DNA of 64,000 bases from Psammoneis japonica (GCA_008632985.1 QPGO01000002.1:186001-250000), one strand, 5' to 3'. Counted from the stretch's first letter, positions 7,811-57,600 are shown. A program made the numbers and translations. Notes: generated from the letters alone by a model not told the origin.

Positions 7811-7811
7811 C

Positions 7812-8699: not shown

Positions 8700-10500
8700 G
8701 TGGTGTTGCTGTCCTGCTGTTCAATGAGACTTTTGATGTGATTTTTGCATTCTGTCTCTTCACCAGATTGATGGTGGTGTCCAATCAGTCTTGCGTTTGT
8801 TTGAAAACAGCTGAGTGTCTTCCCTGCCAAGCCCATGCAACAGTGCATCATGACAGTCAAGGAAACAGGTCTTCTTGCCGTTTGCGCCTGGTTGGCAGGG
8901 AAGTGCAATGGTTTCCCACAGGTTGCAACTCGAGTGCGAGTCCACCCCGCACCAAACACAGACCCTTGGATGCTTGTGGCTGGTGGACACCACATCAAAG
9001 TGACAACGCAAGTGTGCAGACGAGATTCATTTCCACCCTGCTGAGCATGTTGGCATTGTTCCAATGTCACAAAATTGCGAGTCATTGTCGTTTGTTCCGA
9101 AGCCGCTCTTCGTTGATGGTTTTGTTGTGCTGCAACCCGCATCACAGAGTCACCATGGCACAAACGTGCTTCAGGTGATGCTGCAGCATCTGTCTTGAGA
9201 GTTGTTCTCGGAACTCCCAGTGACCCGTTGGACTGTTGTCTTTCCAAGACAAGTCCAACCCGCCCTCCGCCACTTCCAAATGCATGTCATGCGCAATGAC
9301 GACAGCCATGGCCTTGCCGTGGTTCATGCAGAATGCCAATGCTTCCAAGAGCAATGGAACATCTTTGCATTTTTGATGTGATGATCCATTGAATCAATTC
9401 GTGAGCAAGTTGAAAGATGCAGATCACGGGCTTCATGTCATCTCGATTGCCCAGTGTCGCTTGCTCTCATTTCTGCCTCTTTCCTGACGCCTCGCACATT
9501 TGTTGCACTCATTGGGGGCATTCACAGCAGCAATGTTGCACGACGAGGTTGACTAAAATGAGCAAAGCACATGCTGGCATCCCTCAGTGCTGCATGTGGG
9601 TGCCACAGTCTTGACAGCAACACCGGATGATCAAACCTTGCTGCTTTCGATCTTGCATTGGATGGCGTTTGTTTTTTCTGAAAGTGCTTCCCTGGCACAC
9701 CTGAAGGCAGCCGATCCCTTCAACGTGCAAATGTGGCCAAGTGGCCATTTCTCCAATCCAGTCTGAACTGCAGTCATCATCAAAGCAGTTGTCACATGTT
9801 GTGTGTGGCTTTCCTTGGAATGTCTTCTTGGGTCCGGCGTCGTCACCCATTCTGCCAAAATCCGCCATTTGCCTGCTTGTTCCAAGATCATGCAGATTTC
9901 CATCGGGCCCATGGCACCCCATCCATCTGTCCTTGGGTGCAATTTGTGTCGGCGAACATGAGCCCGAGGTCGGATCCGGTGTGCATCTGACGCGATCGCT
10001 GTCTGACCGCCCTTGGTGATGCCGGGCTTTCCAACTGTGCGACCGTCAATCCCGCTGCCAGCTTCCCACAACCCGCATGGCCCCAGGTGGTTTTGTCACC
10101 ACATTGATCCAATTCTGCATGGTGTGTCATCGCATTGACATTGTGAGCTGTTGTTGCGTGTGTCATGTCACACTTGCAGGCCGGGTTGCACCCAGCTTCT
10201 CCTCTTCTGGGGGATGTCATGTTGTTGCACAGCTTCAGCACTCGCTTTGTTTGAAGCCAAAGTGAATGATTGATTGACGAGGATGTGTCTGAGTCGCAGT
10301 GGATCCACCAGCCATCCACCTGCGGTGAATGGCTCCGTCGCTGCCACCCTTGACGCCGTCTTGGACAGTTGCTCCATCAAATCTGAAAAGCTCTGGATGC
10401 TCACAAGTTTGAACTGGTGTCCATGCAAAGAGCACAGCTTCAACTCTCCCGCGGCGTGCAAGTTTGAATCTGTTTCTACTTCGCTGTAGAACGACTTTCT
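8700..10500 (-). mobile_element. Degenerate piggyBac-like DDE transposase
   Basis: Frameshifted minus-strand fragments ELDQCGDKTTWGH, KPGITKGGQ..SDAHRIRPRAHVRRHKLH, KPHTTCDNCF, NHGKAMAVVIAHDMHLEVAEG, WEFREQLSRQML and a Cys-rich C-terminus resemble piggyBac-type transposases (recognised from memory, no search run). Confidence 0.7.
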
Positions 10501-27737: not shown

Positions 27738-27879
27738 GAAATTTGCCTTAAAAGTTGACGTTACTAATCATTACAAGCTACACTCCGTCTCTTGTCGTTA
27801 CTTTGTCGCCACCGCTTTCTACACATCCTTGTAATTGCACTTCTTCCTCATCCGAAACCCCTTTTTCTATGCTTTCCAC

Positions 27880-30130
27880 GCGTGCCCAGCCGTGTTTCTG
27901 TCTTGAAACCAGGCTTCAAGAGTTCACGCTGCAGTTTGCACTGTGTGGTCCATCCATTGGCTCCAATGGATGAAGTGGGCAGCACAGCTTCAACCCAATG
28001 CCAGGGTCTTGATGGGTTGTGTTTGAAGTTGACCTGAGAATGATCCACACAACACTGGTGGAAATGAGGGCAAGCGCATGACAAGACATGTCAGTTTGGT
28101 CTTCTGTGCAGATTGTGACCCAAAGCACTGTTTGAACAACATGATGTGTGGCACCCAACGAAGGGGTCATGGCTGGTCATGTGTGAAGCTGGTCACCCAC
28201 ATTTGACATGAGAGCATTGACAGACATCAAGCTGGGGAGTGGTGGAAATGAGTGCAGGTGCAACAGATTTGTCAATGCAGCCTCGCACTCACATCAAAAA
28301 TGTTTTGTCATGAGAAAATTTTGTGTGTGTGGCTGGGGCCAATTGGAGAAATTGGGCACTTGCACAACATGAGAATGATGCACACAAGAAACTTGGGTTT
28401 GGCAAAAATCAGAGCATCAGAGTCTCAGAGAAGTGAGGGGTGTGATGCCATCAAGGAAATCTTGTGTGGCAGCTTGAGTGTGTGCTTCCAGACGGTTGAG
28501 CAGCAACAGCTGTCAGCAGCAAATGCAAACAAAATGTTTGAAGTGGACCCTCTGGATGTGTGCACAGGTTGGTTGGTTTGCAGACAAAATGCTTTGATTG
28601 CTGCAATGGTTGCTCTGGTTGCTCCTGCTGCTGACTGGCTTTTTTGCTTGTTTGAGCCCTTTGGCTTGGGTGAGCGAGTGCCCCCCCTTTGCACAAAGCT
28701 CTGCTCCTGTCCTCTGCTTCTTCCTTGCTCCCATGGAGGTTTTTTCATGTGCTCTCTCTTTCCCTTCCTGGTTCTGCACTTGACCACTTTGCCCTCTCAT
28801 TTCCCCAGGCATTTTTGACCTGCTCTCTTGCATCTTTTTGTCTTGGTTGGCCACTTGGCCAGCTCTCATCATGGGATTTCTTCCAACGACCCCAGCTGGA
28901 GTTCTCCAGTGCTCAACAGACTGAAGGCTCTTTGTTGTTTGCAACAGTGAGCTTGCTTGTGCCAACCCTGTCATCCAACCACTTCTGCTGGGCACAAGCA
29001 GAAAAGAGGCAACATGTCCTCAGGTGTCATCTGCGCGCAGCAAACATGTGCAGGGCGGGAAGGTGGTTGGCAGATGGCTGCAGCATGTGCGTGCAGCCAG
29101 CACACCATCATTCTCTTGTCAACTCATCTGTCCATGGAGCTCAGCAGGTTTGCTCACATTGCACCCTGTTCATTGTCACATGGCCAAAAATGTGCGCTCA
29201 AGTGGCGCAGCCTTGCTGTGCTGCTTGCTTGGTTGAAGAATGGCTGTCCGCAGCAAGTGCAAAGACAAAAAATGTCATTTGAGGTGGACCTTCCAAATGT
29301 GCGGGCAGACCCATTGACTTGCAAACAAAACACTTCAACTGCTGTGGTGGTCACCCTGGTTGCTCCTGCTGCTGCCTTCAGCTGGTGACTTGGAGCCCCT
29401 TGGGTGAGAGAGAGAGAGAGAGAGAGAGACAAGAGAGAGAGAGAGAAAGCCTGCACCCACCCCCACAACATGCTGCCATGCTTTGGCTGCAACAGCAACA
29501 AGCTGCAGTCATCAGACACATGACGTGTCTTGCCTTTTCAAATGATTCAGAAAAAACAGGTGGCGAGCAACAAAGCAGTCCAAAACAATGCAGGGATCAA
29601 CACACACAACACCTTCTTGTTGCTCTGTTGCCTGGTCAAGGTCTTGTGTCTCCTCCTGATTGCTTGGCTTGCTGGCGTGTCATTTTTTGGGATGCTTCTT
29701 TGCATCTCTGTCCATCCCTTCCTTGCTCCCATGTTTGTTTCTCCATGTGCTCTCTCTCTCTCTCTCTGCCTTCCCAGCTCTGTGCTTGAACACTTTGTCT
29801 TTGCTGTTTTCCCCAAGGCGCTCTTGACCTGCTCACATCACTGGCTTGCCCCTGGCTTGGCCAACTCTCTCACTGCAAAGTTTGTTTTCTTCCCAGCGAC
29901 CCCAGTTCTTGTTCTCCAGCACCAACAGACAACAGACCAAAGGCCCATTGTCTCGCTTGCAGCGCGCGCGCAAGACATCCTTCTCTCGTCTATCCGTCTG
30001 TCCACGGGGTTCGGGTTCGCTCACATCACACCGTTCATCGCACCGAACGTGCGTTCGAGTGTCGAGGGCATGCACTCGCATTGCACACAAAAATACAAAA
30101 CGCTTGACACGTTGACAAGACCGGAGAAGC
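27880..30130. mobile_element. TpA/CpG-depleted repeat-derived insert with an internal duplication
   Basis: TG/CA-rich; 28530-28900 resembles 29270-29400 plus 29640-29920; (GA)n at about 29405-29446. Confidence 0.55.
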
Positions 30131-30367
30131 ATCACGCTTGCTGCTATCAACACCAACCTAAACCGACAAAGCTCGTACATTCATTCACTTACGCACCACT
30201 CTATTGAACAAGAGAGTCTTACTGTCGCCCTATTCATTTGGAAACAACCAAAGAAACAAAGTACCGCTACTGTTCGTCTAAACTGCTTCTTTTCCCCAGA
30301 ATCGAATCGTAAACGCTCCCCGAAACTTTCAAATACAACACCAACTCGACAACCGTAATCAATCACC

Positions 30368-30919
30368 ATGGCAGAGACTGTTGTACGTACAGCTACAGCG
30401 GAATACGATGCACTTCAGGAACGGATCGACCGGGCCGCTCGGGTCGACGCTGCTTCTCGTCGTGCGGTTGAATTGGTACAGCATTACAGCGAAATCGATC
30501 CTCGCGACGGAGACGAAAACAATCCATGGCGCAATCCTCAGCAGATTTTCGATGAGCTCCATCAAGCTCGTCAAGATATTGTAGATGCTTGGGCCTCTGG
30601 CGGCCAACACAAGAGTAGCGGCGATCATGTTCCTCATCATCACGCAGCTGATAGGGGTTCGGATGAGAGCTTTCGTGCTATTTACATTGGTATGATTACG
30701 GATGCATTTGCCGAGGAGCTCGAAGCTATGAGGAATGAAGGTGGCCAGGAGATTGATGTCGACGTTCTCGTTGAATGTCTCCAATCCGGAATGGAGCTCT
30801 TAGACAGGGATGAGCGAGAGCTTCTGAAGCTCGATCACGACGAGGCATCAAAGCAGGGTCTCGACAAGGGTCTTTCGCCGCATGAGCTTCGCCAGAGGCA
30901 GCTAGGCTTTCATTTCTGA
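30368..30919 (+). CDS. Hypothetical protein with an RSA3-like (ribosome assembly protein 3) C-terminal motif
   Basis: 183-aa ORF; FRAIYIGMITDAFAEELEAMR..DVLVECLQSG resembles the RSA3 motif (from memory). Confidence 0.6.
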   Translation: MAETVVRTATAEYDALQERIDRAARVDAASRRAVELVQHYSEIDPRDGDENNPWRNPQQIFDELHQARQDIVDAWASGGQHKSSGDHVPHHHAADRGSDESFRAIYIGMITDAFAEELEAMRNEGGQEIDVDVLVECLQSGMELLDRDERELLKLDHDEASKQGLDKGLSPHELRQRQLGFHF

Positions 30920-31049
30920 ATGATTCATTCTCAGTATTCTGAATTTTCTGTGTAAGTTTGGTTCTACTTTTAAGTTTGTAGCGTTGGGATTGCTCGTCAC
31001 CCTCCATAAGAGGTGTAGTTCGTAGTCCCATTGCCCCATATTGTTTCAA

Positions 31050-31710
31050 AAGTATTTATCATAATGGTAACATGGCATATCATAGTAGTCGGCTTTGCTA
31101 CTCTGCACCGTTAGTCAAAAAAGCCTATAACTACGAATTGTCCGCGTCGGCGAGGAACCGGGCGGTGGTTTGCTGGCTCGAAACAGCCACACGACGTAGC
31201 CTGATGCAATGGGGGAAAGGAAGAATCAAACAGTCATATCTATCCGTGACTTTCTTACCAGAGTCTTTAAGATAATGGTTTGGTTCGTACCAGTTGATGG
31301 ATCATTCATGACCACAGCGCGACACTAGACAAAACAGTTTGAAAATAATTTTATAGTGTGAGGGCGGAAAATCAATGCTGGATGGTTGAGAGTGATAAAA
31401 AGCAACCCAATTCTCTTGCTTGGGGTGCAGCATGTCAGCAAATACTTGAAGGTATGCCCGCCTCTGCCCAACCCAAATCAAACAAGCCTGAAACCCAGAG
31501 AAAACTGCATCAGAACAAGCAAGCTGGTTTTGGCAAATGCTGTGCGGTCACATTGAAAGCATGAAAAGGCCACCCAATTCACTCATCTGGGTGGCACATC
31601 AACTGCTCAAGCTGTGCCACCTCCATTAAACCCAAATGCAATGAGGGCACTCACATCACTGAAAGAAACTTGCCAAATGCCCAAATGGTGGTCGCACACA
31701 AATGTTCAAT
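31050..31710. repeat. Diverged direct duplicate of 39060-39705
   Basis: Shared blocks GCCTGATGCAATGGGG, GATGGATCATTCATGACCA, AACCCAATTCTCTT, GTCACATTGAAA, CAAATGTTC. Confidence 0.85.
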
Positions 31711-34180
31711 GAGCACAGTCCACAAGGGAGGGGGGCGGCAGAATGTTTTGTGGCTCTGTCTCAGGGAGCCAACCCTTGCTTGCCTTGCAAAGCTTCCAGT
31801 GACATTCACCATTCAATCATGTCAGAAAGAGTGCAGAATTTGATGGCTGCACCCCTGAGGAAGGCCACACAATATTCAAAAAAGCACTCTGACAAGACAG
31901 GCGAAGCACTCCATGATGCTCTTGCAGAGGACATCTGCACCATGAAGGGTGCAACCGCCAAGGACAAAGTGGCAGCACCAATGCCAGCAAAGTCAGCTTT
32001 TCATGAAAAAATGCATGGCAATGGACATGCATGATGGGCACAACTGACAGTTCTTGAAGAGCACAACAAAAACTTGGCTCAAAAGGAGCCAGGCCAGTGC
32101 AAGAGCCTGCAATGTCGGAAATGTCGCAAATTGTCATGGAAGTGTGCACTCACTGCCAAAGAACATTGTGGACATTGCAAGCAACTCCAGAGTCCATGAG
32201 GGGCATTGGATCTGCTCATGAGCTGCTCAACATGCAGAGGACAGTGGCACACCTGACACTCTTTTGGGGAATTTGGTGCTTGCAACATGTCAAGCATCTG
32301 GGTTCTGTTGCATTTAATGGTTGCTGGCTTGTCTCTGTTTCATGCCTGTGTTGAGCAGGTTGCACGAACAACAAGGGCGGTCATGAGAATGGACCCAGCA
32401 AGTCACGCCTGGTGCGCACACATTGTTGTCGGAGAGCAACCAAGTTTGGTGACCTCATGTGTCTTGGTGGCAGGGGGGCAATGTCAAAATGGGCTCTTGT
32501 CAGCTTGCAAAGTCAATTGCTTGCAAAAGGAGGGCACTGAAGATTCATTGCATGGCAATGCAAAATTGCATTTGAGAGATGACACATGGTTCTCATGACA
32601 AAATCCACTGACTGGCAAGCAACCTCCAATGTTGAGAGCAGATGACACTCTTCCAGATCTGTTGAATGATTGTGCATCCACAACAGACTTGAAAAGGCTG
32701 TCAACCAAGGAGGCAAAGGCTCATGACATCAGTCTTTTGCATGACAAAGCAAAGCACAAGAGCCCATCTGCTGAAAGAGAGAGACAATCCATGGCGTGCA
32801 ACAATGACAGTGTGGCAAATTGTGTGCAAGCAACACAAGTGGCTCTAGAGCCAACACCCTCATCATCAACCATTGGCCCAGTCAGAATGGCATCTGACAT
32901 TTGACACACACCAAGAGCACAGCATCTCCCAAAGAGCACAGGGCAGATGTCATTGCCATCAAAGCAATTTTTTCCCATTCTTTGGTTTCAACCCTTTCAA
33001 ATTGCTTCATCCAAAGGGTGGCGCCAACAGAGTCGAGGGGAAAAAGATGCCAATTGGACCTGCATCATGTCTTGATCATTTTGAGAACAGCAGTCACCCC
33101 GGTGCTCTTGTCCATTCTTGTGAACAGCCCAAGGAGGAGGAGATGGCAAAAAACGGATTTGGAAAAAGTCAATTGCGCCAAATGCACAAATTGCCAAATG
33201 ATGGGAATCGAACCAGCACGGAGCACCTGGAGCTGGAACAGGCCTGCAATGGACAGCCCAAGGAGGTGATGTCATGGCAGCTGGAGTCCATGCAAGCAAA
33301 ACAGCCTGACAATTGTGGCCAAGGGAGCATGAGGGCAGAAAACTCAGATGAGGTCCCACAAAGAAATGGACGTTGCCCATTGTCAGAAGCAGGGGATTCA
33401 TGTGCAATTGTCAAAAAAACAAAATGACCACATGAGCAATCTGCAACCACCAGCGATGCCCAGCCAAAAAGAAAGCCAGGATGCATTGTTGTCACAAACA
33501 GCACTGCAACAACAACACAAATTGCAATGGCTTGTGTGAAGCATGTGGTGCATCTGATGCACTCTGGTGCAGGACAGTCTGCCTGCATTTTGTGGATCAC
33601 TTGCCAGTGCTTCCTGGCAATCCAAGTGCCAACCATTTAAAAACTCATGTGGAAAAAAGCAGTGGGTTCATTGGGAGACTGCTGATCATCTTGGGTTTTG
33701 AATGGTCAGGTGCTGGACTGATCACCTTGCACAACCTTGACTGCGTTGCAATCAGCACAAAATGGAGCACATGAAGCCAGCAACTCTTGATGTGATGGCA
33801 CCAACATCTGATGGAACGACAGCAATGGAAAAGGTGGCAGTTGACCCCTTGTTGGCTCCTGCAACTCTTGGTGCTTTGAGTTTCAATGCACTGACAAAGG
33901 GCACTCACATGTCCAGCAGAAATGGTGCAGAGCGCGAAAAGCTTTGTTGATGCTGCAATCCCAGATTTCTCTTGTAAAGGAGCAGCTTCTGGAATCATGC
34001 AACTGGCTAAAAAGTTCAAAGCTCAGTGTGTGGGGATGAGACGAGCGCATCCAAGCCACCCAAAATCGATTTGCTCAATTTGAGCCCAATTGAAGTCAAA
34101 TGATGGACTGGATTTGGAAGACTTAAAGTGCCTGTTGTGCTGCAGCATCATTTGTTGTGAGGGCAACTTTGACGAGATGG
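31380..34180. mobile_element. TpA/CpG-depleted degenerate block
   Basis: Same composition as 1-7810; Tyr-poor spurious ORFs. Confidence 0.5.
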
Positions 34181-34200
34181 CAGAGACTAATACAACTAAC

Positions 34201-37182
34201 TTATTCTAGAGACGACTGGTTGGATGGTTTGTCAAGAAGCATGTCCAGCTGCTCTCTCGCTTCTTCATACAGCAACTTCTCTTTGCGCATAAAACGAAGC
34301 ATGTTTAGCTCAGTCCGTGAAAGTGACTCAAGGGGAACTTCATTGCGCATCCCCAACCTGTGCTTGCCAAGAACTTCATGCCGGTGGATCCTTTCGTCAA
34401 GAAACTTCCTGAGCAGATCGTAACCATCTACAACATCTCTGCTTTCATCTTGTGCTTTCTCCATCTCTGCCTTGATTATGAGGAATTTGGCAACCTTGTC
34501 GAGCGAGTCGCCATGGATGCCCCCAATACAGAAAGAAGGACTTAGAGAGTCGACGTCGATCTCCGAAAGTCGTTTCAAACAATCTTCTGTTTCATTTTGC
34601 GAGAGAATCAACGTTGGAATCGATAAGCTGTCGACAAGCGCGCAATCATAACTGTTGTTCTCCAACAGGAAGCCGTGATGTGTCATATACACGTAGTTTG
34701 ACTGCGCGTAGTTTTCCTCGACGCGGTCTCCTTCGTTAAAGCTACGTGGGGCCGTCGACACACTCGCCGTTCCTTCATCGTTCAGCTTCACGTCGTGCTC
34801 CCACATGAGTTCCCCGTCGTCATTGGGACGCTCATCGCAATTGATGTTATCAACCAGGGGATGCAAGTGCGATTCGACGTTCAAGGGGATTCCACGCGTA
34901 CGGTGAATATTGAAAGCCCAAATATATTTCTCCATATCAAGCATGATAGAAGGTCCCATAGCTTCAACTAGATCCACGTTCGTGGACAACATCTCGAAGA
35001 TATCACGAGCATGCTTCTGGCGATTCAACATGTAGCCTCGAGTATCAGATCCGGCTAGCATCTCCAATTGCTCCTTTCTTAAGAAGAACGGATACATCAC
35101 TTTCACTTCTTCCGGCGATGGAATCAAGTTTAGATATGGCCACCACCGACTCTCCTCCCGTAAAACAAAGTACTCATACATCAGAAATATCTCTAAGCAG
35201 TGCTCACAATCGTTCTCTCGATCCATCGTTTGCACCACAGCCTCAAGCGCTGGGTTTTTTGGAAAGGATAGATGATGTCGACTTACAGTACCGGAGATGG
35301 GGTATGAGAAGTAAACCTCACCTTGCTTGATTTTCTCCTTGGCAACAACTCCAGCCCTCATACCACTGTCGCCAATAAACCTCACTTCGACTTTTGACAC
35401 ATTTGGAGAAAACGATTCAATAAACGAGTTGAAAGAATCAATATCGGTTTGAGTGAGGCGTCTTGGAGAACCATCTTCGACAGGAACAGTACGACAAAAC
35501 CCTGTTTCGCTCCCACTACATTGGTCGATCGAATCTTCTTCATTGTCCGCCGCTGAGAAACCTTTAGCCAGTAGAGTGAGAACGTGCTTGTCAATAATGC
35601 GTAATTGGATTGCAACGTTTGCTCGCTCAATACTAACCCCTTCAGGTATCCAGGTGGAAAGGGAAGCGAAGTACTCAATGTCCTGTTCCAAAATTGTTTT
35701 CGCCGAGTCCAGCAGCCTTCTCGCTGCTCCCTGCAGCATTTTGTGCACTCGTTCCTCCGCGCCTTGATATCGAGTACATAGCGCTCGCACCAGCTCACGG
35801 TCGGGTTCTTCATGGTCAAGGGCCTCAAAGCACGGTCTATCCGGCCCATCGTCGTCACGTAACATTGCTATCATGGCCAAGCGACCCGCATCGCGATTGC
35901 TTGACAAAGTTCCATCCGCCCGAACCCAAACATGTTCGGGTACGAAATCGTCGCGAGTTGCGTTCCTGAGATAGTAATTGCTTGAGTCCTTCTCTCCATC
36001 CCATAAGTATGACGTTGGAATAGTTACGTAGTGGTGTTGGGTAATGTAGGGGCCTTCTGGATCCGTGTATTCGTCAGGAATGAATCCACCAGTTTCCACA
36101 AAATGACCAACAAGAACGGGGCCGTAGTCTTCAAAGATTTGCTGGTTCGGTAGCACCGGGCGATCTGCACGAACGTTGTAGACCGTGTTGTCCTCATTAA
36201 AGTTGTGATAGAGCCCAAACGGACCATGGTAGTATATGTTACCGTCTTTTGTCAGAGAGCCGGCTGGAGGTGATGGCGAGTGGTTCAGCAGGTCTGCCAT
36301 GGGCATCATCACGTGCACCGGGCCTCCATCCATGCTCATGACGCGAGACTCCACAATGGCGAAAAAGTGGTGGAAGTCCAACCAAACAAAAGAGCAAAAG
36401 ACACCATCCATGGGTATGTTCTGTTCATTTTCCCTGTCCAGGTTAGCCCTTCCCTTTGTGAGTACATCCCACAACCCTAGAGCTTCAATTTCAGAGAAAG
36501 CCGACCTTAGTACCTCCTTTCGATCAACAACTGTCTGCTTCATGTAAGAAAACGTGTCAATGTTTTCAAGCAGAAGAGAATCCCATTCGAGTTCGCTAAA
36601 CGTGTCAAACCTCGGAGCCAATGTCTGCGGGAGAATATCCAAGTAGGGAGCAAAGTCAGAAGTAGAATGAAAGCACTGCTCAATCATCAATCGAATAGCC
36701 AAGATGATGTTTTGCTGGGTTTCTTGTTCCAGAGCGGATAAGATGCTACCGAACTTGTCAATAATTGTTTCATTCGATGAAGATTCCGGCGTATCTTGAA
36801 CTTCTTTTTCGTTCGATGCTTCGATCCATTTCTCGAATGCTTCAACTGTTTCGTTGGCGTGCACAAAGAGCTTCTCGGGGACTGATAATAGAACGTCTAG
36901 CTGCTGGATTGCCGACGTTTGACTCCTATTCTTCTCTGCGCCCGGAATCGTCGGTTTTGCCACCAACCCCAAGCCATTGTAGTCTTTCAGAGCTTCAATG
37001 CCAACCGACGGAGAGATGAGTCCTCCGTTTCCCTCAAACCAATAGCGAAAGATATCTACCTTCTCTTCCACTGATGTGCCGGATGCATCGCCTTCAGCTA
37101 AAGCAACGGAGGATACACCGAAGAACGCGAGGCACAGAAAGAGGCAGAAGAAGAATGGACTCATTGGTTTTGATACAAGCAT
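34201..37182 (-). CDS. Secretory-pathway tandem SET-domain (Rubisco LSMT/SETD3-like) lysine methyltransferase
   Basis: Intact ORF; signal peptide-like MLVSKPMSPFFFCLFLCLAFFGVSSVALA; SET1 GLGLVA..FAPYLDILP..MPMADLLNHS..IFEDYG; SET2 MRAGVVA..SRWWPYLNLIP..PLVDNINC..ENYAQSNYVYMTHHGF. The ORF track extends to a non-ATG start at 37305. Confidence 0.9.
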   Translation of the reverse strand: MLVSKPMSPFFFCLFLCLAFFGVSSVALAEGDASGTSVEEKVDIFRYWFEGNGGLISPSVGIEALKDYNGLGLVAKPTIPGAEKNRSQTSAIQQLDVLLSVPEKLFVHANETVEAFEKWIEASNEKEVQDTPESSSNETIIDKFGSILSALEQETQQNIILAIRLMIEQCFHSTSDFAPYLDILPQTLAPRFDTFSELEWDSLLLENIDTFSYMKQTVVDRKEVLRSAFSEIEALGLWDVLTKGRANLDRENEQNIPMDGVFCSFVWLDFHHFFAIVESRVMSMDGGPVHVMMPMADLLNHSPSPPAGSLTKDGNIYYHGPFGLYHNFNEDNTVYNVRADRPVLPNQQIFEDYGPVLVGHFVETGGFIPDEYTDPEGPYITQHHYVTIPTSYLWDGEKDSSNYYLRNATRDDFVPEHVWVRADGTLSSNRDAGRLAMIAMLRDDDGPDRPCFEALDHEEPDRELVRALCTRYQGAEERVHKMLQGAARRLLDSAKTILEQDIEYFASLSTWIPEGVSIERANVAIQLRIIDKHVLTLLAKGFSAADNEEDSIDQCSGSETGFCRTVPVEDGSPRRLTQTDIDSFNSFIESFSPNVSKVEVRFIGDSGMRAGVVAKEKIKQGEVYFSYPISGTVSRHHLSFPKNPALEAVVQTMDRENDCEHCLEIFLMYEYFVLREESRWWPYLNLIPSPEEVKVMYPFFLRKEQLEMLAGSDTRGYMLNRQKHARDIFEMLSTNVDLVEAMGPSIMLDMEKYIWAFNIHRTRGIPLNVESHLHPLVDNINCDERPNDDGELMWEHDVKLNDEGTASVSTAPRSFNEGDRVEENYAQSNYVYMTHHGFLLENNSYDCALVDSLSIPTLILSQNETEDCLKRLSEIDVDSLSPSFCIGGIHGDSLDKVAKFLIIKAEMEKAQDESRDVVDGYDLLRKFLDERIHRHEVLGKHRLGMRNEVPLESLSRTELNMLRFMRKEKLLYEEAREQLDMLLDKPSNQSSLE

Positions 37183-37353
37183 TTTGTTTATATGGTTTTT
37201 ATGTTGCTTGTTCTCTCTCTCTCCACTCTCCGCCCGCCACTCAATAACAACGATTGACATCATTCCTGCCATGTATAAAAATTTGCATCTACTGCTTTCG
37301 TCCAATTTGAATTGATGGGACGAAGTGGGAGAGAATGGCTCTGCCTAATGGAC

Positions 37354-37580
37354 TCAACGGAAAACATGTTTATAAGAATATTTCCGTTGTAACGAGTTCC
37401 TTATCTAATTCCGTAAGAGCGGTGATAATTATCTATATATTCGTATAGTATGTATACATGTTTAAAAAAGAAGTAGTATCAAATAAAAATCTTTCAACGG
37501 AAATTATGCTTTTTATAAAAATGAATATTACTTAGAATTGCAAGAGAAGAAAGATACAGTAATAGGCCATTCAACGGAAA
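37354..37580. promoter_or_regulatory. AT-rich divergent promoter with four CAACGGAAA motifs (MSA/MYB-like)
   Basis: TCAACGGAAA at 37354, 37494 and 37571; reverse TTTCCGTTG at 37381. Confidence 0.6.
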
Positions 37581-37712
37581 CTTTGTTCTTGTTAAAAATC
37601 TAAAATTTTTTGGTGTGCGCATGAATCAGAATCTGATCGTCCTTTCACAGTTGCCGCACCTCTTGCCACAAAAACACAAACTTGCAACCTTCAAGCAGTC
37701 TCCGTCGCAAGC

Positions 37713-38661
37713 ATGAAAATCGCCGCCATACTTGTTCTCATTGCCTCCCTCGCTGTGGCGTCTGCGTCGAAACTTCGTTTCGGAAAGCCTGGTGGTGACG
37801 TGACCGACGAAGCCGAGAACCATGTGAGTCTTTTTGGCACCGTGCGCGACGAGGTCGAGAGGAAGTCATTTGCTGGTTTTTTGGCAGTGCTCTCAATTTC
37901 ATTTCGTCCCACTTTTCTTGTGTTCCCGCCAGGCATCTCATCATCGTGTTTTGCAAGCACACGGTGGCAGCAGTAGAAGCAAGGGCAAGGGCGGAAGCAG
38001 CATGATGGGCTATGGCGGCAGCACCAAGGGCAGCATGGGTGGCTATTACTACGGCAGCAAGGGCATGGGCTATGGCGGCAGCACCAAGGGCAGCATGGGT
38101 GGCTATTACTACGGCAGCAAGGGCATGGGCTATGGCGGCAGCACCAAGGGCAGCATGGGTGGCTATTACTACGGCAGCAAGGGCATGGGCTATGGCGGCT
38201 ATTACTACGGCAGCAAGGGCATGGGCTATGGCGGCAGCACCAAGGGCAGCATGGGTGGCTATTACTACGGCAGCAAGGGCATGGGCTATGGCGGCTATTA
38301 CTACGGCAGCAAGGGCATGGGCTATGGCGGCAGCACCAAGGGCAGCATGGGTGGCTATTACTACGGCAGCAAGGGCATGGGCTATGGCGGCTATTACTAC
38401 GGCAGCAAGGGCATGGGCTATGGCGGCAGCACCAAGGGCAGCATGGGTGGCTATTACTACGGCAGCAAGGGCATGGGCTATGGCGGCAGCAAGGGCATGG
38501 GCTATGGCGGCAGCACCAAGGGCAGCATGGGTGGCTATTACTACGGCTCCTACAAGGGCAAGGGCAGCAAGGGTGGCTATTACCACAGCTACTCCAAGTC
38601 CACCAAGGTAAATCGTGAACTAGATGCCGATAACTCTGTCGAGGAAGACCACGAGTGGTAG
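37713..38661 (+). CDS. Secreted Gly/Tyr/Ser/Lys/Met-repeat protein, cingulin/silaffin-like biosilica protein (279 aa spliced)
   Basis: Signal peptide MKIAAILVLIASLAVASA; phase-0 intron 37824-37932 (GTGAGT..CAG); RVL and REL (RXL) sites flank GYGGSTKGSMGGYYYGSKGM repeats; acidic tail. Confidence 0.85.
38005..38548 (+). repeat. Coding tandem repeat, 60-bp and 36-bp units
   Basis: Near-perfect GGCTATGGCGGCAGCACCAAGGGCAGCATGGGTGGCTATTACTACGGCAGCAAGGGCATG units. Confidence 0.95.
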
Positions 38662-39059
38662 TTGCTCCTCTTTTCAAGAGCGTCACACGCTCAACTGCGG
38701 CATTTGGTAGTGCTGAGGGTCGAGGGATGGTTTATATGTTTTTTAAATAGCAACCACTGGTTTGGCGATGGGAGGCTTGCCATAGAGGAATATCATGTTT
38801 GTATAATAATTGCATTTGCATCTTCCAGTTCTACTGTAGCTTATTGCTTTGCCTCTGCAAGTTTCCATGCTCGACATTGTCTACGAGGTAGCCATAACCA
38901 ACACAGAGACGTACGATGTGAATAAACGAAAGTATTTTTGCATGAAAGGCATGCATTTGCTTTGATGACACATTGTGTTTCTTGATGCGATCAAGCAGTG
39001 TTTGGTGCATAGAGTTTCACCAACACCCGATGCCTCGTGTCGTTTCAAAAGGGTAGTTG

Positions 39060-39705
39060 AAAGTAGTCATGATAATGGTAACAGATTATAACGCTCGAGT
39101 TTTTGCTTTGACGGTGAGTCAAAACAGTCTCTAACTGCGACTCCGTGACGGCGAAGAACGGGACTTTGGTTGGCTGGCTCGCAACAGCAACAGGACGCAG
39201 CCTGATGCAATGGGGAAGGAGGAATTTCTCACAGGAGAGTCTGAACGATGATGGCTTGGGTCGCACAAGCAGATGGATCATTCATGACCATAGCGCGACA
39301 CTCTAGAGAAATCAGGTCGAAAAATGCAGCAAGCGGGCGGAAAATATATACTAGACGCTTGAGAGTGGCAAAACGTAACCCAATTCTCTTACTTGGGTGT
39401 ATTTCAGCAAGCGCTTGAAGCATGCCCACATCTGCCAAACCCAAATCCGTCGAGAGTACTCGCATTCGTGCCGTGAAATATGCATGAAACCGAGAGAAAA
39501 AATCACAAGGATAGAGGGCTGGTTGACATAAGTGCTGTAGTCACATTGAAAACATTAAAAGCCCATCCAATTCACTTATCTGGGTACCACAGAAAATATT
39601 AAAGCCATGCCTCCTCCATCAAACCCTAATGCAAAGAGGGTACCCCCATCTCCGAAGAGAACTCGTTATTCGTCCAAACGGTGGTCGTGCGCAAATGTTC
39701 CAGCT
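39060..39705. repeat. Unmutated paralogue of 31050-31710 (possibly a decayed minus-strand coding segment)
   Basis: See 31050-31710; retains TpA and CpG. Confidence 0.8.
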
Positions 39706-45839: not shown

Positions 45840-47400
45840 GATTTCCATGTCATTGGCGATGTCAACCCATGCCGCTCACTCGGTGTTTGCCATTCAGCTT
45901 TTAGCAGAAGTGCATTCTCAAACAGCAGCTTTCATAAGCTCCATAAGCTCTGTGGCATGGGGTGACAAACAAACGGCTTCCACGAGGCACTCATCACCAA
46001 CACTTCCCTCCACAGCATGGTGCAGGTGGCTTTGAGGGTGCAAGCACTGGCGAAATGCCGGGCTCCAATGAAGATGACTGTGCCAACACCATCCAGTCCT
46101 TTCTTTAAAAAAAAGCTGCTGTGCTCATGCAACGCAAGTGGAAATCGATCCAGCCATGTGAGCGAGCAAGATGCAAAAGAAAACAAAACAGAGCAAGTGC
46201 GAGAGTGCCTTTTTTAAACACCGGCGCAAAGCCATGTTGGCCAGCAGAAATGTGGAGGAAGAGTTACAAGACACAAAGGGTCAAGCCTGTCCTCACAGAA
46301 TGAGCAGGTGCTGCATGTGCAATCAAGAAAATTCATGCACCAGGCAAATGTTGCTGATTGCCATTTTGGCGCCACCTCAATCGCTTCCTTTTTGGCAATC
46401 ACAAGCCAACATAAATGCCGCAGCTGGTTGTGGCTTTGTGATGGGGCATTGGGTGCTTTCAGCCAATCTGGATGAATCCTGATTCGCCCATCTCTGTGTC
46501 TTCAGGCTGCACTTCTTTTTGAACCGTGCCTGTTTGACAACAATTTTGTCAAGGCAAAGGCAGGCATGATGCAGAGTGTCTGCCAAGAGCTCATGGTCTT
46601 TGAGGCCAATTTCACATTGAGTGCATTGGCAGCAAACTGAGTCAGCACAGAGTTGAGATTCTTTGTCAACTCATTCAACTGTTTTTTTCCAAATCAGAAC
46701 CTGCTCCACTTTCAAACTTCTTGGTGCACTTGTTGCAACCAAGACAAGGGATTTGAATTTGTGCTGGAGATTCATGGTTCATGCTAACAGTGCTGCTGCA
46801 ATCAAGTCTTCTTCCCCTGAAAAAGGGAGCACAGATTGTTGGTGAAACGTCAACAATGTGCTTTGCCACCAGCCTTGCAAGAAAGTGGCTTTCAAAGCCC
46901 CAGGGGAAGGCAGTCATCAATTTGTGGCAGATTTGGACAACCACTGGCATCCTGGAAAGTTTCTCATCATGCTTGCATTGACAAACTTTTGTGTCGCTGC
47001 TTGCCAAATGGCAAATCCTCTGAGCTTTTGTGGTGGGTGCAATGAGTGGCCACCTGAGCATTTGTTTCATTGTTGTTCCAGTGGCAACACAACTGGGCAC
47101 AATGCTTCCAGTGCTGCAGGCATGCCTTCACATGTGGAGCTGAGGGTGTGCAAGGCTGCAAGGCTGTGCATTCCTGCTTGCCAATGGCACTGATGCAGTC
47201 ATGCCTTACAAACTTGACCACATCAACTGCAGATGCCAACTTGAGCATCAATTTTGCCAACAATGGTCTCTTGCCAATTTTCCCAGCACTTGGGATTGAA
47301 TGCCTTTTTCATGCTTTTTGCTGCTGTGCCTCTGCTGCCATTTTTGGCAGCAGCCCAAAGCCCCAAAGAGGACAAAGGGGGGAGATGAAGTCCCCAAGCC
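45840..47400. mobile_element. TpA/CpG-depleted degenerate block
   Basis: Abrupt compositional switch near 45840. Confidence 0.45.
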
Positions 47401-47410
47401 CTCTCCAGAT

Positions 47411-48780
47411 GCTCTCCTGTTGAGCTCCATTTTGCCATCGTCATCAAGCAAAGATGGAAACTGTCACAAATTCCTTTGAAGATTGAGAACAAAATGCACA
47501 ACAATGTGATCAAGAAGTTTCACCACAGAAGCAATCACAGGCCACAGGCATGGCTGGTCGCATCAATGCCAGCATGCGCACACCCTGAGAAACATTCCAA
47601 GAAGGAACAATGAAGTGCAAAATGACATCGAGTGTCGACTTCCTGTTGTTCAGCATTCTGAGCCTTTTTGGTCACATCAGAGCATCCACTCTTGCAGCAA
47701 GGACCAATGACAGCTGATGATCAGACAGTGACCCATCACTTGTGCAACCGCCTGTGCTCACCTGAGAACTGCCACTGGCTGCTCAGGATGCAATGACCCT
47801 CATTCCTTGTTTTCTCCTCTCTTGATGAAGTCCCAAAGCCCTGGGTCATGCTCCAGGAATCCAACAAAAATGCAAGCAATGCTCTCCTGTTGAGCTCCAT
47901 TTTGTCGTCATCATCAAGCGAAGACTGCAACTGTCGCGGATTCCTTTGAAGATTGAGAATGAAATGAACGACAATGCAAGCAAGAAGTTTCACCGCAGAA
48001 GCAATCAGGCCACGGGTGCGGCCAGTTGCATTGGTGCCAGCATGCGTGCCCCGAGAAACATTCCAAGAAGGAACAATGAAGTGCAACATACAATGTCGAG
48101 CATCGACTTCCCATTGTTCAGCATTCTGAGCCTTTGCGGTCACATCAGAGCATCCACTCTTGCAGCAAGGACCAACAACAGCTGACAATCAGACAGCAAC
48201 CCAACACTTGTGCATCTGCCTGCGCTAAAACCTGAGAACTGCCACTGGCTGCTCAGGATGTGATGATGCTCATTCCTTGTTTACTTCCGTCTTGACGAAG
48301 TCCCAAAGTCCTCCAGAGGTCATGCTCCATGAATCCAACAAAAATGCAAGCAATGCTCTCCTGTTGAGCTCCTTGTCGTCTTCGTCATCGAGCAAAGACG
48401 GCAACTGTCATGGTGTCCTTTGAAGATTGAGAACAAAATACAAGAGGATGCAATGAAGGAGTTTCATCAAAGAAGCAATCAGGCCACGGGTGTGGCTGGT
48501 CGCATCAATGCCAGCATGCGTGCCCCGAGAAATGTGCCAAGACAGAAAAACAATGCACAGCGTCACATCAAGTGTCAACGTCCCATTGTTCACATTGTTT
48601 GGAGCCTTTGTGGGCATCTCAGAATGTCCCCTCTCACAGCAAGGGCCAACGACAGACAACAATCAGACAGTGCTGTAGCCTGAAACTTGCACGTCTGCCA
48701 GGCTCACATGAGAACTGCCACTGACTGCTCAGGATGCAATGATCCTCATTCCTTGTTTTCTCCTGTCCTGATGAATTGCG
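47411..48780. repeat. Tandem repeat, about 470 bp x3, overlapping the 3' end of the LRR gene
   Basis: GCTCTCCTGTTGAGCTCC at 47411, 47881 and 48355; CTCATTCCTTGTTT near 47799, 48269 and 48745. Confidence 0.9.
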
Positions 48781-50088
48781 GATTGTTCATCAAGAACCAA
48801 AACATGAAGTTCTCATTGCTGCGCGGACCTGCCAAGACGTGCGGCCAAAGAGCTGCAGGTGCGTCGTGGCGATGCAGCAAGTGTCTTCCTGCTTTGTTCA
48901 TTTGAATGCAGCAATCTACTTCAGCTTGCATCTTGTCTTGCGGCTTCTTGCGCATCGGCACAACAGCACGTTCAATGGAGTGCAACGCATCTCCAATGTC
49001 CTTGGGTGTGGTTGTGAGCGACGAACAACCATCCAAGTCTAGATGACAAAGACTCGGAAGCTCAAGAATTTCTTTTAGAGTTGCAGTCAACTGCTCGCAC
49101 CAAAGTTCCAAGTGCTCCAACTTTGTGAGCAATCCCAGCTTGGGAGGCAGCTCAACCACTTCGAAACACGAGGTGACATCTGACGCAGTGAGATTGACCA
49201 GATTGCTCACGGCGTTTTGCAAGAATTCATCCAAGCCGTGGACGCGGTTTGGAAGTGTGAGTTCTTGCAGCTGTGTCAGCTTCCCAATCTCAATCGGCAG
49301 TTTTGTGAGTTTCTCGCAATGTCTGAGATTGAGTTCCTCAAGTTGCTGTAACTTTCCAATTTCAGGGGACAAGTGAGTGAGGGAGTTGCACTCACGCAAA
49401 TGCAGCTCCTCCACCAAGTTTGTCAATTGCCCCCATTGATCTGGAACCTGTCCAAGAATTTTGCACTCTGGAGTGTGGTGTCTCAGTTGCTGCAGCTCTC
49501 AGATCCCCACTGTTGGCAACTCTTCGAGGCTTTCGCATTCGAAAATGATCAGGAGTCTGAGTTGTGTCAACCACCCAATTCCCGCGGGCAAACTTTTGAA
49601 AGCCCTGCAAGTTTGCAAGTTTAGCTCCTTCAACTTTGTCAAACTGCACATTTCGTCGGGCAGTGTAACAAGGGTGTTCGTGTCACATAAATTGAGTGCT
49701 TTAAGTTGCTGCAGCTGCCCGATTTCAGGTGGGACCCACTCAAGCCCGATGCAGCAGTCCAAGGTCAAAACGACAAGTCGATGCAACAAGCCAATTTTGC
49801 GCGGAAGCTCAGCCACAATGCCCGAGCTCAAACTCAGTTTTCTTGCATTGACACACTTTTTGTGACCTTGTTCATGATCACCGTAAGAGACACAATCGCG
49901 GTTTTCTGACAACGACCGCTTTGACTCTCCCGTGGCTTGTGTCAACGCAGCGAATGTTCGGTCGGAAAGACGATCGTCGTCGTCGTCCACATTGTTGTTG
50001 TCTTGTTCCCTTGGAAACGCATTGTGAGAGCAAGGCACCCACTTAAAGCGAGCGTGTTGATAAAAGAAAAGCGACGATTTCAAATGCC
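48746..50088 (-). pseudogene. Leucine-rich-repeat protein, frameshifted and hypermutated
   Basis: LPxEIGxLxxLxxLxLxxC repeats in two frames; C-terminal MNKAGRHLL..LWPHVL motif; no Tyr in the last 226 aa. Confidence 0.85.
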
Positions 50089-50432
50089 ATTCACCGACCG
50101 CTGTGGGCCATCGTCGACAGCGATGAAATCACTGTTGTACCGGCTACTCTCTAGCAGTAGAGTATTTGGAACATAAAAGAAGCTGACGTCGATTGGACCT
50201 TCTGGGTCTCGTAACATCTTACGTACATGTACAGTACTGTATCCTACTGTACTGTACCGTACTGTACAAGACGCCTCATCGCCGACTCGTTGGACCGATT
50301 CGATTCGATTCGTTTGATTTGACATTCGACTGCGCCGCAACTGCTGCTGAATACTGAATACAGTAGCTAGAGTCTAGCCCTACTCCTCAATGCTGTAGAG
50401 TGCGATCTAATAAAAGTTAATATAGCTCTCCT

Positions 50433-54619: not shown

Positions 54620-57600
54620 CACTCGGTCACCAGTCTGTCACTCACTGTTCTGCTTTGACCCAGCCCATGACGTGCTCACCAGCCAGCACTGGCATTCTCT
54701 CATTGCTTGGCTTGGAGTCCAGGCTCCAGCAGCAAGCTCCTGGACCAGTCCTGCTCGAATCCAAGGGGTGCAATTTGGGGCACAAGAACTTTGGGGTGCA
54801 AAAACAGGCATCCTGCCTGAGACCAACACGCAATTTTCCTGCATTGAGTGCGCCAAAACTGCAACTCATTTGTTGCAAGCCTTTGACACACAAAGGTTGG
54901 TGCAATGATGATGATGATGTGTTTGCCAGAGCAATGCAGCCGATGGTGAGGTTGTCACCAAGGATCCTGACAACCATGGCAATTGGATTTGCTGCATCAA
55001 TTGTGCCAGCTCGCATCCTCTTTTGTGCGCCAATGATCTTCTCCAAGGCTTTGATCTGGGCTCCAACAGCCCTGCCTTTTTTTGGTGTGAGCACTCGCAT
55101 CCCAGAAAAGGAGTCCAGAAATTGACAACTGGCACTTTGAGTTGCTGGTCACCATTCCTTTGTCTTCTTCAAAGACTTGCTTGCAAATGAGTTGGCCAAA
55201 GCCACACAATTTGACAAGTTCTTTTTGGGTGCAGATGTCACAGCTCCAGATGACAAACCTGCCATGTTGCACACACCTGCGGCACACCCCTTGTTTGTGA
55301 AATTGAAAGAAGAAGGTGATGATGGCTTTGTGCTGCATCTGTGGGTGCAAGCATGGCATGGACACTTTGATCTCAGTGGCACAAAGCAGTCGCCTGATCA
55401 AGTGTGGCTTGATGCACACATCTTCTGCCCTCCTTTCAATGCTTCCTGTGGATGCCACGCTTGCTTCATGGCAATGTCGTCCAAGAAAGAAAATCATCAA
55501 ATCATGGAAACAATTTTAAGAGCTTCCATTTCCTTCTCCCCTGACATCTTCTGCAAAGCCTTGCTTCAAGCACGGTGTTGACTGCCACTTGCTGCTGTGC
55601 TCATTCCATCTGGCTGCACCACATGATGAGTGCACCCCAGCCAGTTCTCCAGGTCTTGTCCATTGCTGTGCAACTGTCCAACAATGCAGAGGAAGCAGCA
55701 AGAGCAATTCATCACACCCATGGCAATGCATCTGGGGAAAATCTGGGTGTCACAGCCTTCCTGTCCTTGTTTTTGTGAGACAGCAACTGGCGCATTGGCA
55801 AGAGCTTCTCCACTCCATTTTCCCCTGACATGCCATTTGTTGCTGTGCCAATTTTGTCTGGCCGCACAACACAATGAGGGTGTCCCAGCCAGTTCTCCAG
55901 ATCTTGTCATTGAGAACCAATCAGCGGAATGTCACCGGCAAATGGGCTGGCAGCCCCACTTGTCCGCTGCTGCACAACCATCTGATGGCACAGAGGCAAT
56001 GGCAAGAACAATGCACCACACCCACAGCAATGCATCTGGGAAGAAAACCCAATTGCTGCCACCTTCCTGCTCTTGTTCTTGTGAGACAGCATGAGAGTGG
56101 CAATGCATGCAACAGCAAAGTTTGACAACAACAATGTCAGTGTGGTGTTGTTCTTTCTTGTGTTCTGGAAACAATCAATTGCCGCACACAAATTTCAGAA
56201 ACAGGCCACATTTTTGTGTTTAAAAAATTTGTTGAATGCAGAATTGCTGTCTTGTCAAAATTTTGGATTCCTGTGCTGCTGACTCACAACATTGTGCGAC
56301 GCACACTGCACAAACATTGTGACAACACGCCATCATCACAAACACCTGCCATTGCACGACAAAGCAGTTGTTGTGTCCATCTGGTGTTGTTTTCAGCACG
56401 GATGATTTTGTGGATGAATGATGCACGCAATGAGGCAGAGCAGCAAATGTGCTCTCTGTCCACAGCAGTGCAAAAAACGCACAGCACGTGAGTGCCATGC
56501 TCATGCTGCTGGCAGTGCATTGTGCTGCTGCTTGCCAGACTCAACCATCTCAGCCATCTGAAATGTGGGGCCAAGCACCAAGAAAAATGGTGAGCAAGCA
56601 CAGCAGCTCTGTGGCAGAGTGCACCATTGATTGGACATGTCTCATGCTGTTGCTTGTCATGCAAAGGCCAAGGAGGTGGTCAGCCCTGGGTGCAAATGAA
56701 AAAGTGACAACCATTGGGCACCATTGTTGTGCTGCCACTTGCCAGACTCAACCACCCCCATGGTGAGATCACATTGTCCTGTGGCTTGCTGTGCAATTGA
56801 TTGGACATGCCTCACACTGTTGATTGTTGTGCAAAGGCCAATGAGTTGTTGGCTGCCACTGGCACAAATGCAAGGTGAGAGCCTTGCGAGCACTCCAGTT
56901 TGGCATTGTTGACTTGCTCTGATGCTGCTGGGCATCATTGTGTTGCTTCTTGGCAGACTCAACCAGCCAACCCCTCCAAGCTGTTGCTGGATCAAGTGCC
57001 AAGGAAAATGGCTGGAGTGCACAATGCAGCCATGCAAGTTGTGCGCTGTTTGTTGGAAACACTTCTCACATTGTTTGTTCATTGTGGCAAAGAAAAAGAC
57101 AGTGAAAAAACATTGCAACAAAACTGCAACCCTTGCTGCAGCCAATGAAGCAAGTGCTTGCCACTCCCAGGGAGATTTGCACATTTGTGTTTTGGTGCAC
57201 CTTGTGTCATCTTGTGCTTGTGCACTGACCGGTTGTTTGTTTCTGCACACACAGTGCAGGTGGTGCAAGGCAGGAAGCTCACTTGATCCACGCCTTGGTC
57301 CACCAAGATGACGGCAAACATTTCACTCAAGCTTGCCTGGACACAAACCCTGTCTTCCCAACACAGTGCTGTGGCCTCAAGTGTGTTGTTGCACTTTTGG
57401 ATCAAGCAGCTGCAAGGTGCTGGAAAAGAAAAAGCCAGTGTGTGGGTTGGCAAAAATGCACTGAGTGCAATTGCCAGTTTTTGAACTGTGTCACGAGTGC
57501 TGTCAAAAGGCTGATTTGTCATCTGGAGTTAATTGAAGCACAGCTTCTCATGGAAATGAAAGTTGTTCAGAGCACTGTGGCTTCTCATTGTTCAGAGTTG

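Follow-up and report, generated by a model that had tools for sequence, protein, structure and literature searches.

A duplicated segment crosses the edge of a TpA- and CpG-depleted domain in a 64,000-nucleotide stretch of the Psammoneis japonica genome

Two copies of a segment of ~660 bases lie in a 64,000-nucleotide stretch of Psammoneis japonica DNA (GCA_008632985.1, QPGO01000002.1:186001-250000), referred to here, at its full length, as the window. The distal part of the left copy retains almost none of the TpA and CpG dinucleotides (hereafter TA and CG) found in the right copy, and this locus therefore raises the question of what decides which part of which copy is changed. The answer that we consider probable is a position-targeted double transition process, converting TpA to CpA/TpG and CpG to TpG/CpA, acting on an old paralog at a domain edge. 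Several elements of this answer had been claimed by an earlier reading of the window (hereafter the sequence-only reading). Counted from the first base of the window, the two copies are:

31049..31707, no strand assigned: left copy; zone A (to 31365) normal, zone B (31366-31460) a fuzzy edge, zone C (31461 onward) erased
39060..39700, no strand assigned: right copy; normal TA and CG content, based on self-BLAST and dinucleotide counts

The sequence-only reading had described 31050-31710 and 39060-39705 as direct paralogs, and this is borne out by self-BLAST of the window, in which 31049-31707 pairs with 39060-39700 (691 columns including gaps, 68% identity, E = 2.65e-71). A repeat search of the window found 74-84% identity in ungapped blocks of 63-178 nt, and a global alignment, with which MAFFT was concordant, contained 143 mismatches among 624 aligned bases; overall identity is ~76-78%. 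Divergence amounts to ~22-25% of aligned bases on both sides of the edge (78% identity before, 75% after), with transition:transversion counts of 41:38 before 31454 and 33:31 after it. Since many or most indels have lengths not divisible by three and transitions are about as frequent as transversions, the duplicate was taken as non-coding and the duplication as old; coding potential was considered and rejected on the same two grounds. The equal background identity on both sides indicates that the distal left copy is the same old paralog and not a different sequence. Both copies lie a few hundred bases downstream of plus-strand coding sequence, the left one of a 183-aa open reading frame (ORF) at 30368-30919 and the right one of a Gly/Tyr-rich repeat gene ending at 38661. 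Rfam returned 0 matches for the whole window at gathering scores and 0 for the right copy at E ≤ 1, and ARAGORN identified 0 tRNAs in the window.

We counted, zone by zone, how many TA and CG sites of the right copy are retained at aligned positions of the left copy. In 31040-31365, 17 of 26 sites are retained and a further 18 occur in the left copy only, which agrees with the earlier claim that the first 300 bp keep TA and CG. The left copy retains 0 of 10 sites in 31366-31460, six of them now being CA or TG, and 1 of 19 in 31461-31720, where 12 are now CA or TG; for all DNA after 31366, 1 of 29 sites is retained and 18 are CA or TG. Only four TA/CG sites after 31366 were scored as left-only; the left copy has TA of its own at 31396, 31443, and 31453 and CG at 31459 within 31366-31460, and one TA within 31461-31720. 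The DNA before 31366 differs from that after it both in the retention of right-copy sites (Fisher p = 8.8e-7) and in the numbers of right-only versus left-only sites (p = 2.3e-5).

Over the distal homologous stretch, the left copy has 1 TA, 3 CG, 37 CA, and 25 TG, whereas the right copy has 13 TA, 13 CG, 25 CA, and 17 TG; the right copy is untouched, as the sequence-only reading had it. After 31366, 12 TA sites of the right copy correspond to CA or TG in the left copy, and by hand count 9 of these 12 changes fit a TAY context (Y, pyrimidine) on the edited strand. In zone C, five CG sites of the right copy correspond to TG or CA. All four left-copy changes that had been cited individually are present (31403/31417, 31648, 31686, and 31584).

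An edge at about 31380 had been proposed. This position falls within the transition; however, it marks only the start of a 95-bp fuzzy zone (31366-31460), and by TA density the domain proper begins at 31454. Symmetric substitution spectra between the copies had been named as the observation that would count against a one-sided change. The single-base spectra after 31454 are in fact near-symmetric (18 T>C plus A>G versus 15 C>T plus G>A), since what TA loss adds to one class (T>C, A>G) is balanced by what CG loss adds to the other (C>T, G>A); the asymmetry between the copies is visible at the dinucleotide level only, in the retention counts given above.

The split left copy, together with the unaffected right copy, argues for targeting by genomic position and not by sequence or duplication. 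That position or chromatin seems to decide had also been suggested, and for position this holds in that the distal left copy carries the domain signature and the right copy does not. In the explanation that we favor, the left copy would sit at the boundary of a silent domain of intergenic or repeat DNA, in which two local DNA-level transition processes would be near completion. The first would convert TpA to CpA/TpG through A-to-G change on either strand, favored where a pyrimidine follows the A (TAY to TGY). The second would convert CpG to TpG/CpA, the trace ordinarily left where methylated cytosine is deaminated. With the edge falling inside the left copy at 31366-31460, the distal 250-340 bp would have been converted, whereas the proximal left copy would not, nor would the whole right copy, which lies in ordinary DNA flanking genes. 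Chromatin or silencing state is most likely what guides the targeting. We infer the polarity of the changes from composition rather than from an outgroup; the chemistry would presumably be deamination, with methylation as the route of CG loss.

The hypermutated domain postulated by the sequence-only reading exists, and it is one of several sharp-edged domains that together cover ~39% of the window. The regions that depart from normal composition, and the islands or zones beside them, are:

1..7500, no strand assigned: erased domain; 17 TA and 71 CG in 7.5 kb; contains a 188-bp tandem array at 2629-3481
9001..10500, no strand assigned: TA-only zone; TA observed/expected (obs/exp) 0-0.08, CG 0.59-0.73; flanks an erased stretch
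27869..29990, no strand assigned: erased domain D1; 0 TA (~89 expected) and 29 CG in 2122 bp; begins 135 bp past the Dak ORF
29991..31453, plus strand: normal-composition island between D1 and D2; holds the 183-aa ORF and the proximal left copy
31454..34000, no strand assigned: erased domain D2; 6 TA (~107 expected), 27 CG, 323 CA, and 268 TG in 2547 bp
46251..48000, no strand assigned: erased domain; 4 TA and 19 CG
48001..50000, no strand assigned: TA-only zone; TA obs/exp 0.07-0.16, CG 0.49-0.99; minus-strand LRR-type ORFs
54751..61500, no strand assigned: erased domain; 11 TA and 48 CG in 6.75 kb

In erased DNA (20.7 kb), obs/exp is 0.03 for TA, 0.16 for CG, 1.82 for CA, and 1.87 for TG, compared with 0.60, 0.98, 1.17, and 1.16 in normal DNA (36.8 kb). 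Because the sum of the four pyrimidine-purine ratios is constant (3.88 erased versus 3.91 normal) and base composition is equal, TA and CG appear to have been redistributed into CA and TG by transitions. When the window was divided into 128 bins of 500 bp, 50 bins were TA-poor; 43 of these were also CG-poor and seven were TA-poor only, and no clear zone poor in CG alone was seen among the 128 bins. The domains extend to within 135-380 bp of adjacent ORFs. A near-normal island inside the first erased domain (7501-8500) has TA obs/exp of 0.39-0.45 and CG obs/exp of 0.73-0.85; it may, as may 29991-31453, represent a transcription unit that is protected. D1 also contains a (GA)21 microsatellite at 29406-29446 and an inverted (CT)n run at 29750-29767, where read-derived contigs end, and a run of 266 N (10792-11057) with single Ns at 10635 and 10700 adjoins the first TA-only zone and represents either a gap in the assembly or withheld sequence.

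A single earlier description of local TpA hypermutation exists, a preprint of 2026 that deals with the chlorarachniophyte Bigelowiella natans (Mettrop et al., bioRxiv 10.64898/2026.01.13.699255). It was the sole relevant paper in the literature that we searched, and that literature held nothing on TpA erasure in diatoms. According to the available text of the preprint, the mutation rate of two integrated viral regions in mutation-accumulation lines exceeds that of the remaining genome ~1000-fold, and of 231 mutations in the hypermutable regions, 230 are A>G or T>C, every one of them at TpA. The same text describes 124 genomic clusters that are TpA-poor, CpA+TpG-rich, and mostly unannotated, as well as a hypermutable nucleocytoplasmic large DNA virus (NCLDV) region that is single-copy and has a TpA Rho of 0.45. 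It proposes an ADAT2-like adenine deaminase and refers to amphioxus and Trypanosoma ADAT2 enzymes by which A as well as C is deaminated in DNA.

Relative to this account, as far as the available preprint text allows the comparison, the first process in P. japonica would be the same change, TpA to CpA/TpG on either strand, for which adenine deamination is proposed in B. natans. In both, the change is confined to regions beside normal DNA (with edges of 50-100 bp here), leaves a long-term TpA-poor, CpA+TpG-rich footprint mostly without annotation, and is independent of copy number. The lineage differs, being diatom-like (stramenopile) here, and so does the extent, as obs/exp of 0.03 represents saturation relative to the Rho of the NCLDV region. 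CpG loss accompanies TpA loss here, whereas the available preprint text makes no mention of CpG. Finally, the rate measured in B. natans has a single hint of a counterpart here, in that all nine substitutions between the window and the read-derived contigs described below lie in erased DNA.

The sequence-only reading had also stated a strict TAY rule. A strong preference of this kind is present; however, it is graded and not strict. Relative to normal density, TA retention is 15.3% where TAY occurs on neither strand (23 versus 262 sites), 3.1% where it occurs on one strand (14 versus 798), and 0.38% where it occurs on both (1 versus 458; Fisher p = 5.5e-9), and the TAs left in the domains are mostly in YTAR contexts. 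By 3' base, retention is 1.0% for TAT, 2.3% for TAC, 4.4% for TAG, and 11.4% for TAA. The per-strand effect is roughly multiplicative, which suggests an agent that recognizes T-A-N on each strand separately. The substrate tRNA of bacterial TadA has a U-A-C context, recalling the TAY preference, and the A-to-G change with T or U preceding the edited base makes the TadA/ADAT2 and ADAR deaminases candidates for the chemistry. These adenosine deaminases normally act on RNA. As to the graded order T>C>G>A found here, the main text of the B. natans preprint nowhere uses the terms trinucleotide, flanking, or context; its figures and supplements may hold a motif analysis.

Both strands are affected, as every domain has similar numbers of CA and TG (848/855, 214/256, 323/268 in D2, 199/190, and 782/823), with a binomial p <0.05 in only one of the five. 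This bears on an alternative in which RNA was hyperedited from A to I by an ADAR-like enzyme, then reverse transcribed and inserted. A-to-G change with a 5' U/T preference does resemble ADAR editing. However, ~97-99% of TAY sites are gone from the domains, far more than ADAR hyperediting is known to reach. Editing of one RNA strand should moreover yield TG or CA and not both, the edge lies within contiguous homology, and CG loss would be left unexplained. We therefore find this alternative barely credible, even though the available preprint text itself remarks on the resemblance to ADAR editing.

At each of the four D1 and D2 edges, the shift in TA density and that in CG density lie no more than ~50-100 bp apart. 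Such shared edges, and the overlap of TA-poor and CG-poor bins, would suit a single dual-specificity deaminase, acting on adenine and cytosine with a 5' T preference, in place of two processes. The ADAT2 enzymes cited in the preprint would provide a precedent, and CG retention is lowest after T (TCG 10%, ACG 15%, CCG 15%, GCG 30%). However, TA is lost in the two TA-only zones, 3.5 kb in total, while CG obs/exp stays at 0.49-0.99, and across erased DNA CG loss is far less complete than TA loss. TC obs/exp is only mildly lower in erased DNA (1.11 to 0.93), which TCG loss alone explains, and the B. natans mutations, as given in the available preprint text, include almost no C>T. A single deaminase is thus unlikely, although it is the least improbable of the alternatives that we weighed.

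Two processes are the reading that we retain. Each TA-only zone borders a fully erased stretch on one side, and TA loss spreads further or proceeds faster than CG loss. Methylated diatom transposons undergo CpG decay, as in vertebrates and plants, and the low CG ratio in erased DNA with its gain of TpG/CpA resembles such decay; this accounts for only the CG half of the signature, as TA loss reaches beyond CG loss at two flanks. Within the second TA-only zone and adjoining bases, LRR-type ORFs (48749-50128, minus strand) match Pfam LRR_8 and LRR_14 with E down to 3e-9, indicating that a recognizable gene or gene relic has been affected by the TA process.

Repeats inside the domains are stronger internal controls than the split duplicate, because independent resolution of an ancestral TA or CG predicts CA in one repeat and TG in another at one site. 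The principal repeat is:

47409..48775, no strand assigned: 474-bp tandem array; 2.9 copies, all TA-poor, that differ mainly by transitions, with CA versus TG at a shared site

Among repeat pairs in TA-poor DNA, CA versus TG makes up 52 of 104 adjacent double mismatches, compared with 1 of 23 in three pairs from normal DNA (p = 3.1e-5). The TA-poor pool comprises the three pairs of the 474-bp array, which are non-independent, and four short pairs in D1 and in the domain labeled D5; the mixed pair formed by the left and right copies past the boundary (2 of 20) was excluded. In the 188-bp array (2629-3481), each pair of units shows 1-6 CA-versus-TG sites. As a three-copy control for CpG polarity, the 474-bp array proved ambiguous, with six columns having CG in the middle copy only, and it was kept for the CA-versus-TG signature alone.

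Read-derived contigs provide a second view of the same DNA. One set (X1) consists of k-mer contigs from one sample, with a word depth of 56-62, which is possibly the source of the window assembly itself. Its contigs match the window at 27129-29395 with one substitution, at 29457-33154 with three, and at 33219-34216 with five; they pass from normal into erased DNA and cover the left copy with 0 differences. An X1 contig (39166-40155) and a contig of a second set, X2 (39017-39472), agree with the right copy, with 0 other letters. The X2 contigs cover genes and the right copy and not the erased domains; the kind of data behind X2 was guessed, and its lack of cover was not used as evidence.

All nine window-versus-contig substitutions lie in erased DNA, of which the contigs span, by hand count, 4544 bases, as against 2419 normal bases. 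They represent eight events: five of CpG versus TpG/CpA, one of TpA versus CpA, one of CA versus TG, and one transversion. Seven of the eight are of diagnostic type, at 33772-33773, 32456, 33294, 33951, 29036, 32415, and 33935, and the five CpG transitions are a further likeness to methyl-CpG decay. These events suggest polymorphic, possibly ongoing conversion between haplotypes or strains, and they suggest that both processes are recent or ongoing.

The contigs also bear on whether the domains are a sequencing, base-modification, or assembly artefact. The runs that contain the stretch all derive from a single sample, perhaps the one from which the window was assembled, and the library type is unrecorded. 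An assembly or post-assembly artefact is nevertheless excluded, because single X1 contigs cross the edges at a depth of 56-62 with 1-5 differences. The effect ends sharply beside unaffected genes on the same contigs; a strand-dependent misread base would be expected to give mixed calls and not one clean path; and CA-versus-TG differences between repeat copies are fixed sequence. We know of no chemistry that would give a strand-symmetric, TAY-graded, domain-limited change, and we regard an artefact as highly improbable.

Separately, at 33144-33246 the X1 word depth rises to ~5800, compared with ~60 nearby, with many different continuations, and the minus strand carries a motif like the T-arm of a tRNA, although ARAGORN called no tRNA there. 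This stretch may be a repeat of the short interspersed element type or otherwise tRNA-derived, or it may reflect cross-matching to other organisms in the run.

A homology-dependent process set off by duplication, like fungal repeat-induced point mutation (RIP), would fit the repetitive nature of some erased DNA (tandem arrays 2629-3481 and 47409-48775) and the other copies of D2 pieces found in X1. Both RIP and the present case involve context-specific transitions in non-genic or repeated DNA, a dinucleotide footprint, and sharp compartment edges. RIP changes CpA to TpA and so raises TpA; it is triggered by duplication and hits both copies. Here the chemistry is opposite, as TpA is destroyed and CpA/TpG raised, and TpA/ApT within the domains is 0.01-0.06. 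The sequence-only reading had contrasted the locus with RIP on the ground that only one copy was hit. That observation stands, since only part of one copy is affected and the right copy and proximal left copy are untouched though duplicated, but it is a weak test, as this is an old duplication whose copies share only ~77% identity; for RIP in Neurospora, an identity of roughly 80% is required. The single-copy state of the hypermutable NCLDV region of B. natans, given in the available preprint text, also counts against such a process, to which we assign next to no likelihood.

Could the erased domains instead be acquired or older DNA, from a virus, a transposon, or a donor, with the distal left copy as part of that block? 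The sharp edges would fit, as would the absence of host-gene signal in the domains. Pieces of D2 have diverged copies elsewhere in the X1 sample and D2 includes the short high-depth stretch, and the B. natans targets described in the available preprint text are integrated viruses. Nonetheless, homology between the copies is continuous across the edge, no terminal direct or inverted repeats were found at the domain ends, and the diagnostic events (seven of eight) suggest that change continues in this genome. To our knowledge, no natural DNA has a TA obs/exp of 0.03. Acquisition as a block is accordingly very unlikely in our judgment, somewhat more so than a single deaminase.

The targets are non-genic and partly repetitive. 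We scanned stop-to-stop ORFs of at least 80 aa in the erased domains against Pfam (136 of the 171 listed; the other 35, of 70-79 aa, were left out), and no family reached the cut-off in any of the 136. The matches below the cut-off were to XFP (E = 1.2e-3) and RTP801_C (E = 9.3e-6; 26.1 bits versus a cut-off of 27); the RTP801-like ORF resembles low-information sequence. The targets in the available text on B. natans are viral, whereas no viral or transposon domain is detectable here; saturating mutation may have wiped out such signal in the domains.

Several results weigh against a position-targeted double transition process. The copies differ at 22-25% of sites everywhere; past 31366 there are 82 mismatches in 342 aligned bases (76.0% identical), and the diagnostic changes account for only 18 of them. 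Of 27 right-only TA/CG sites after 31366, 9 turned into something other than CA or TG. Zone B of the left copy retains three TAs in favored contexts (31396, 31443, and 31453), so the edge is not clean. The two losses part ways in 9001-10500 and 48001-50000, which fits two processes but makes CG loss a poorer indicator of the TA process. The Pfam result leaves a foreign, viral, or transposon origin of the targets unsupported. An nhmmer search with a two-copy profile identified no third copy of the segment within the 64-kb window (best other match, E = 0.11), and no outgroup copy was found in metagenomes, where a 19-nt block common to both copies matched five loci, all five by chance over 19-24 nt. 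Lastly, X1 is possibly the assembly's own source, which leaves room for a library-level artefact.

With these points weighed, a position-targeted double process remains the reading that we prefer, and it suggests that TpA hypermutation of the B. natans type extends to a second eukaryotic supergroup, where it would have reached saturation and be accompanied by CpG loss. A broader proposal is more tentative and, in our view, rather doubtful: an old eukaryotic DNA adenine-editing defense, guided by position through silent chromatin and changing TAY to TGY on both strands, would be common to Rhizaria and stramenopiles and operate beside cytosine methylation. If so, such a defense could remove TpA from at least a third of the intergenic and repeat DNA in a genome. 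It would then mirror fungal RIP, with no duplication required, and the split paralog, the TA-only fringes, and the polymorphic sites would show where editing is still active and advancing.

The split paralog is a natural experiment for place as opposed to sequence, and the locus as a whole constrains the mechanism, which has to act on both strands, prefer TAY in the order T>C>G>A, and halt within about a nucleosome length. It should also coincide largely but not fully with CpG decay, ignore duplication status, and apparently still be polymorphic. If this were general in diatoms, repeat annotation would suffer, since erased elements would be unrecognizable, and mutation-rate estimates and genome-defense models of major marine primary producers would be affected.

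The genes of the window recognized by Pfam encode Dak, SET, cyclophilin, HOP/TPR, PAS, and LRR proteins. The genes nearest to the two copies are:

30368..30919, plus strand: 183-aa ORF; weak Rsa3-like match
34201..37305, minus strand: SET-domain gene; 1034-aa ORF, Pfam SET E = 1.4e-4; in normal-composition DNA between the copies
37713..38661, plus strand: gene for a Gly/Tyr/Lys/Ser-rich repeat protein; ~13 repeat units, a signal-peptide-like start in another frame, normal composition

The two copies had been said to bracket the SET gene and the Gly/Tyr-rich gene; the SET gene does lie between them, but there is no sign that this arrangement has any meaning. Every named best match of the Dak ORF comes from a diatom (Pseudo-nitzschia, Nitzschia, Seminavis, and Mayamaea; 57-63% identity), and other matches reach 67%. 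The window is eukaryotic, and these matches point most probably to a diatom without near relatives among the proteins searched, and not to Bigelowiella. No Pfam family was identified in the Gly/Tyr-rich gene (37713-38661); its TA obs/exp of 2.0 is due to Tyr codons, and its X2 depth is ~10,000. Diatom cingulins, which are located in girdle bands, have Tyr- or Trp-rich domains alternating with Lys/Ser-rich domains, and the predicted product, for which the sequence-only reading used the label cingulin-like, may belong to the cell wall (biosilica-associated), as would suit a diatom. For the SET ORF, the sole homolog is CTEN210_06233 of Chaetoceros tenuissimus, which aligns with 90% of the query at 27% identity. 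At 34219-37187 in this region, second contigs occur in both X1 and X2, with 20-57 other letters per 0.6-1.4 kb, which suggests divergent alleles or a close paralog and hence a heterozygous or hybrid genome.

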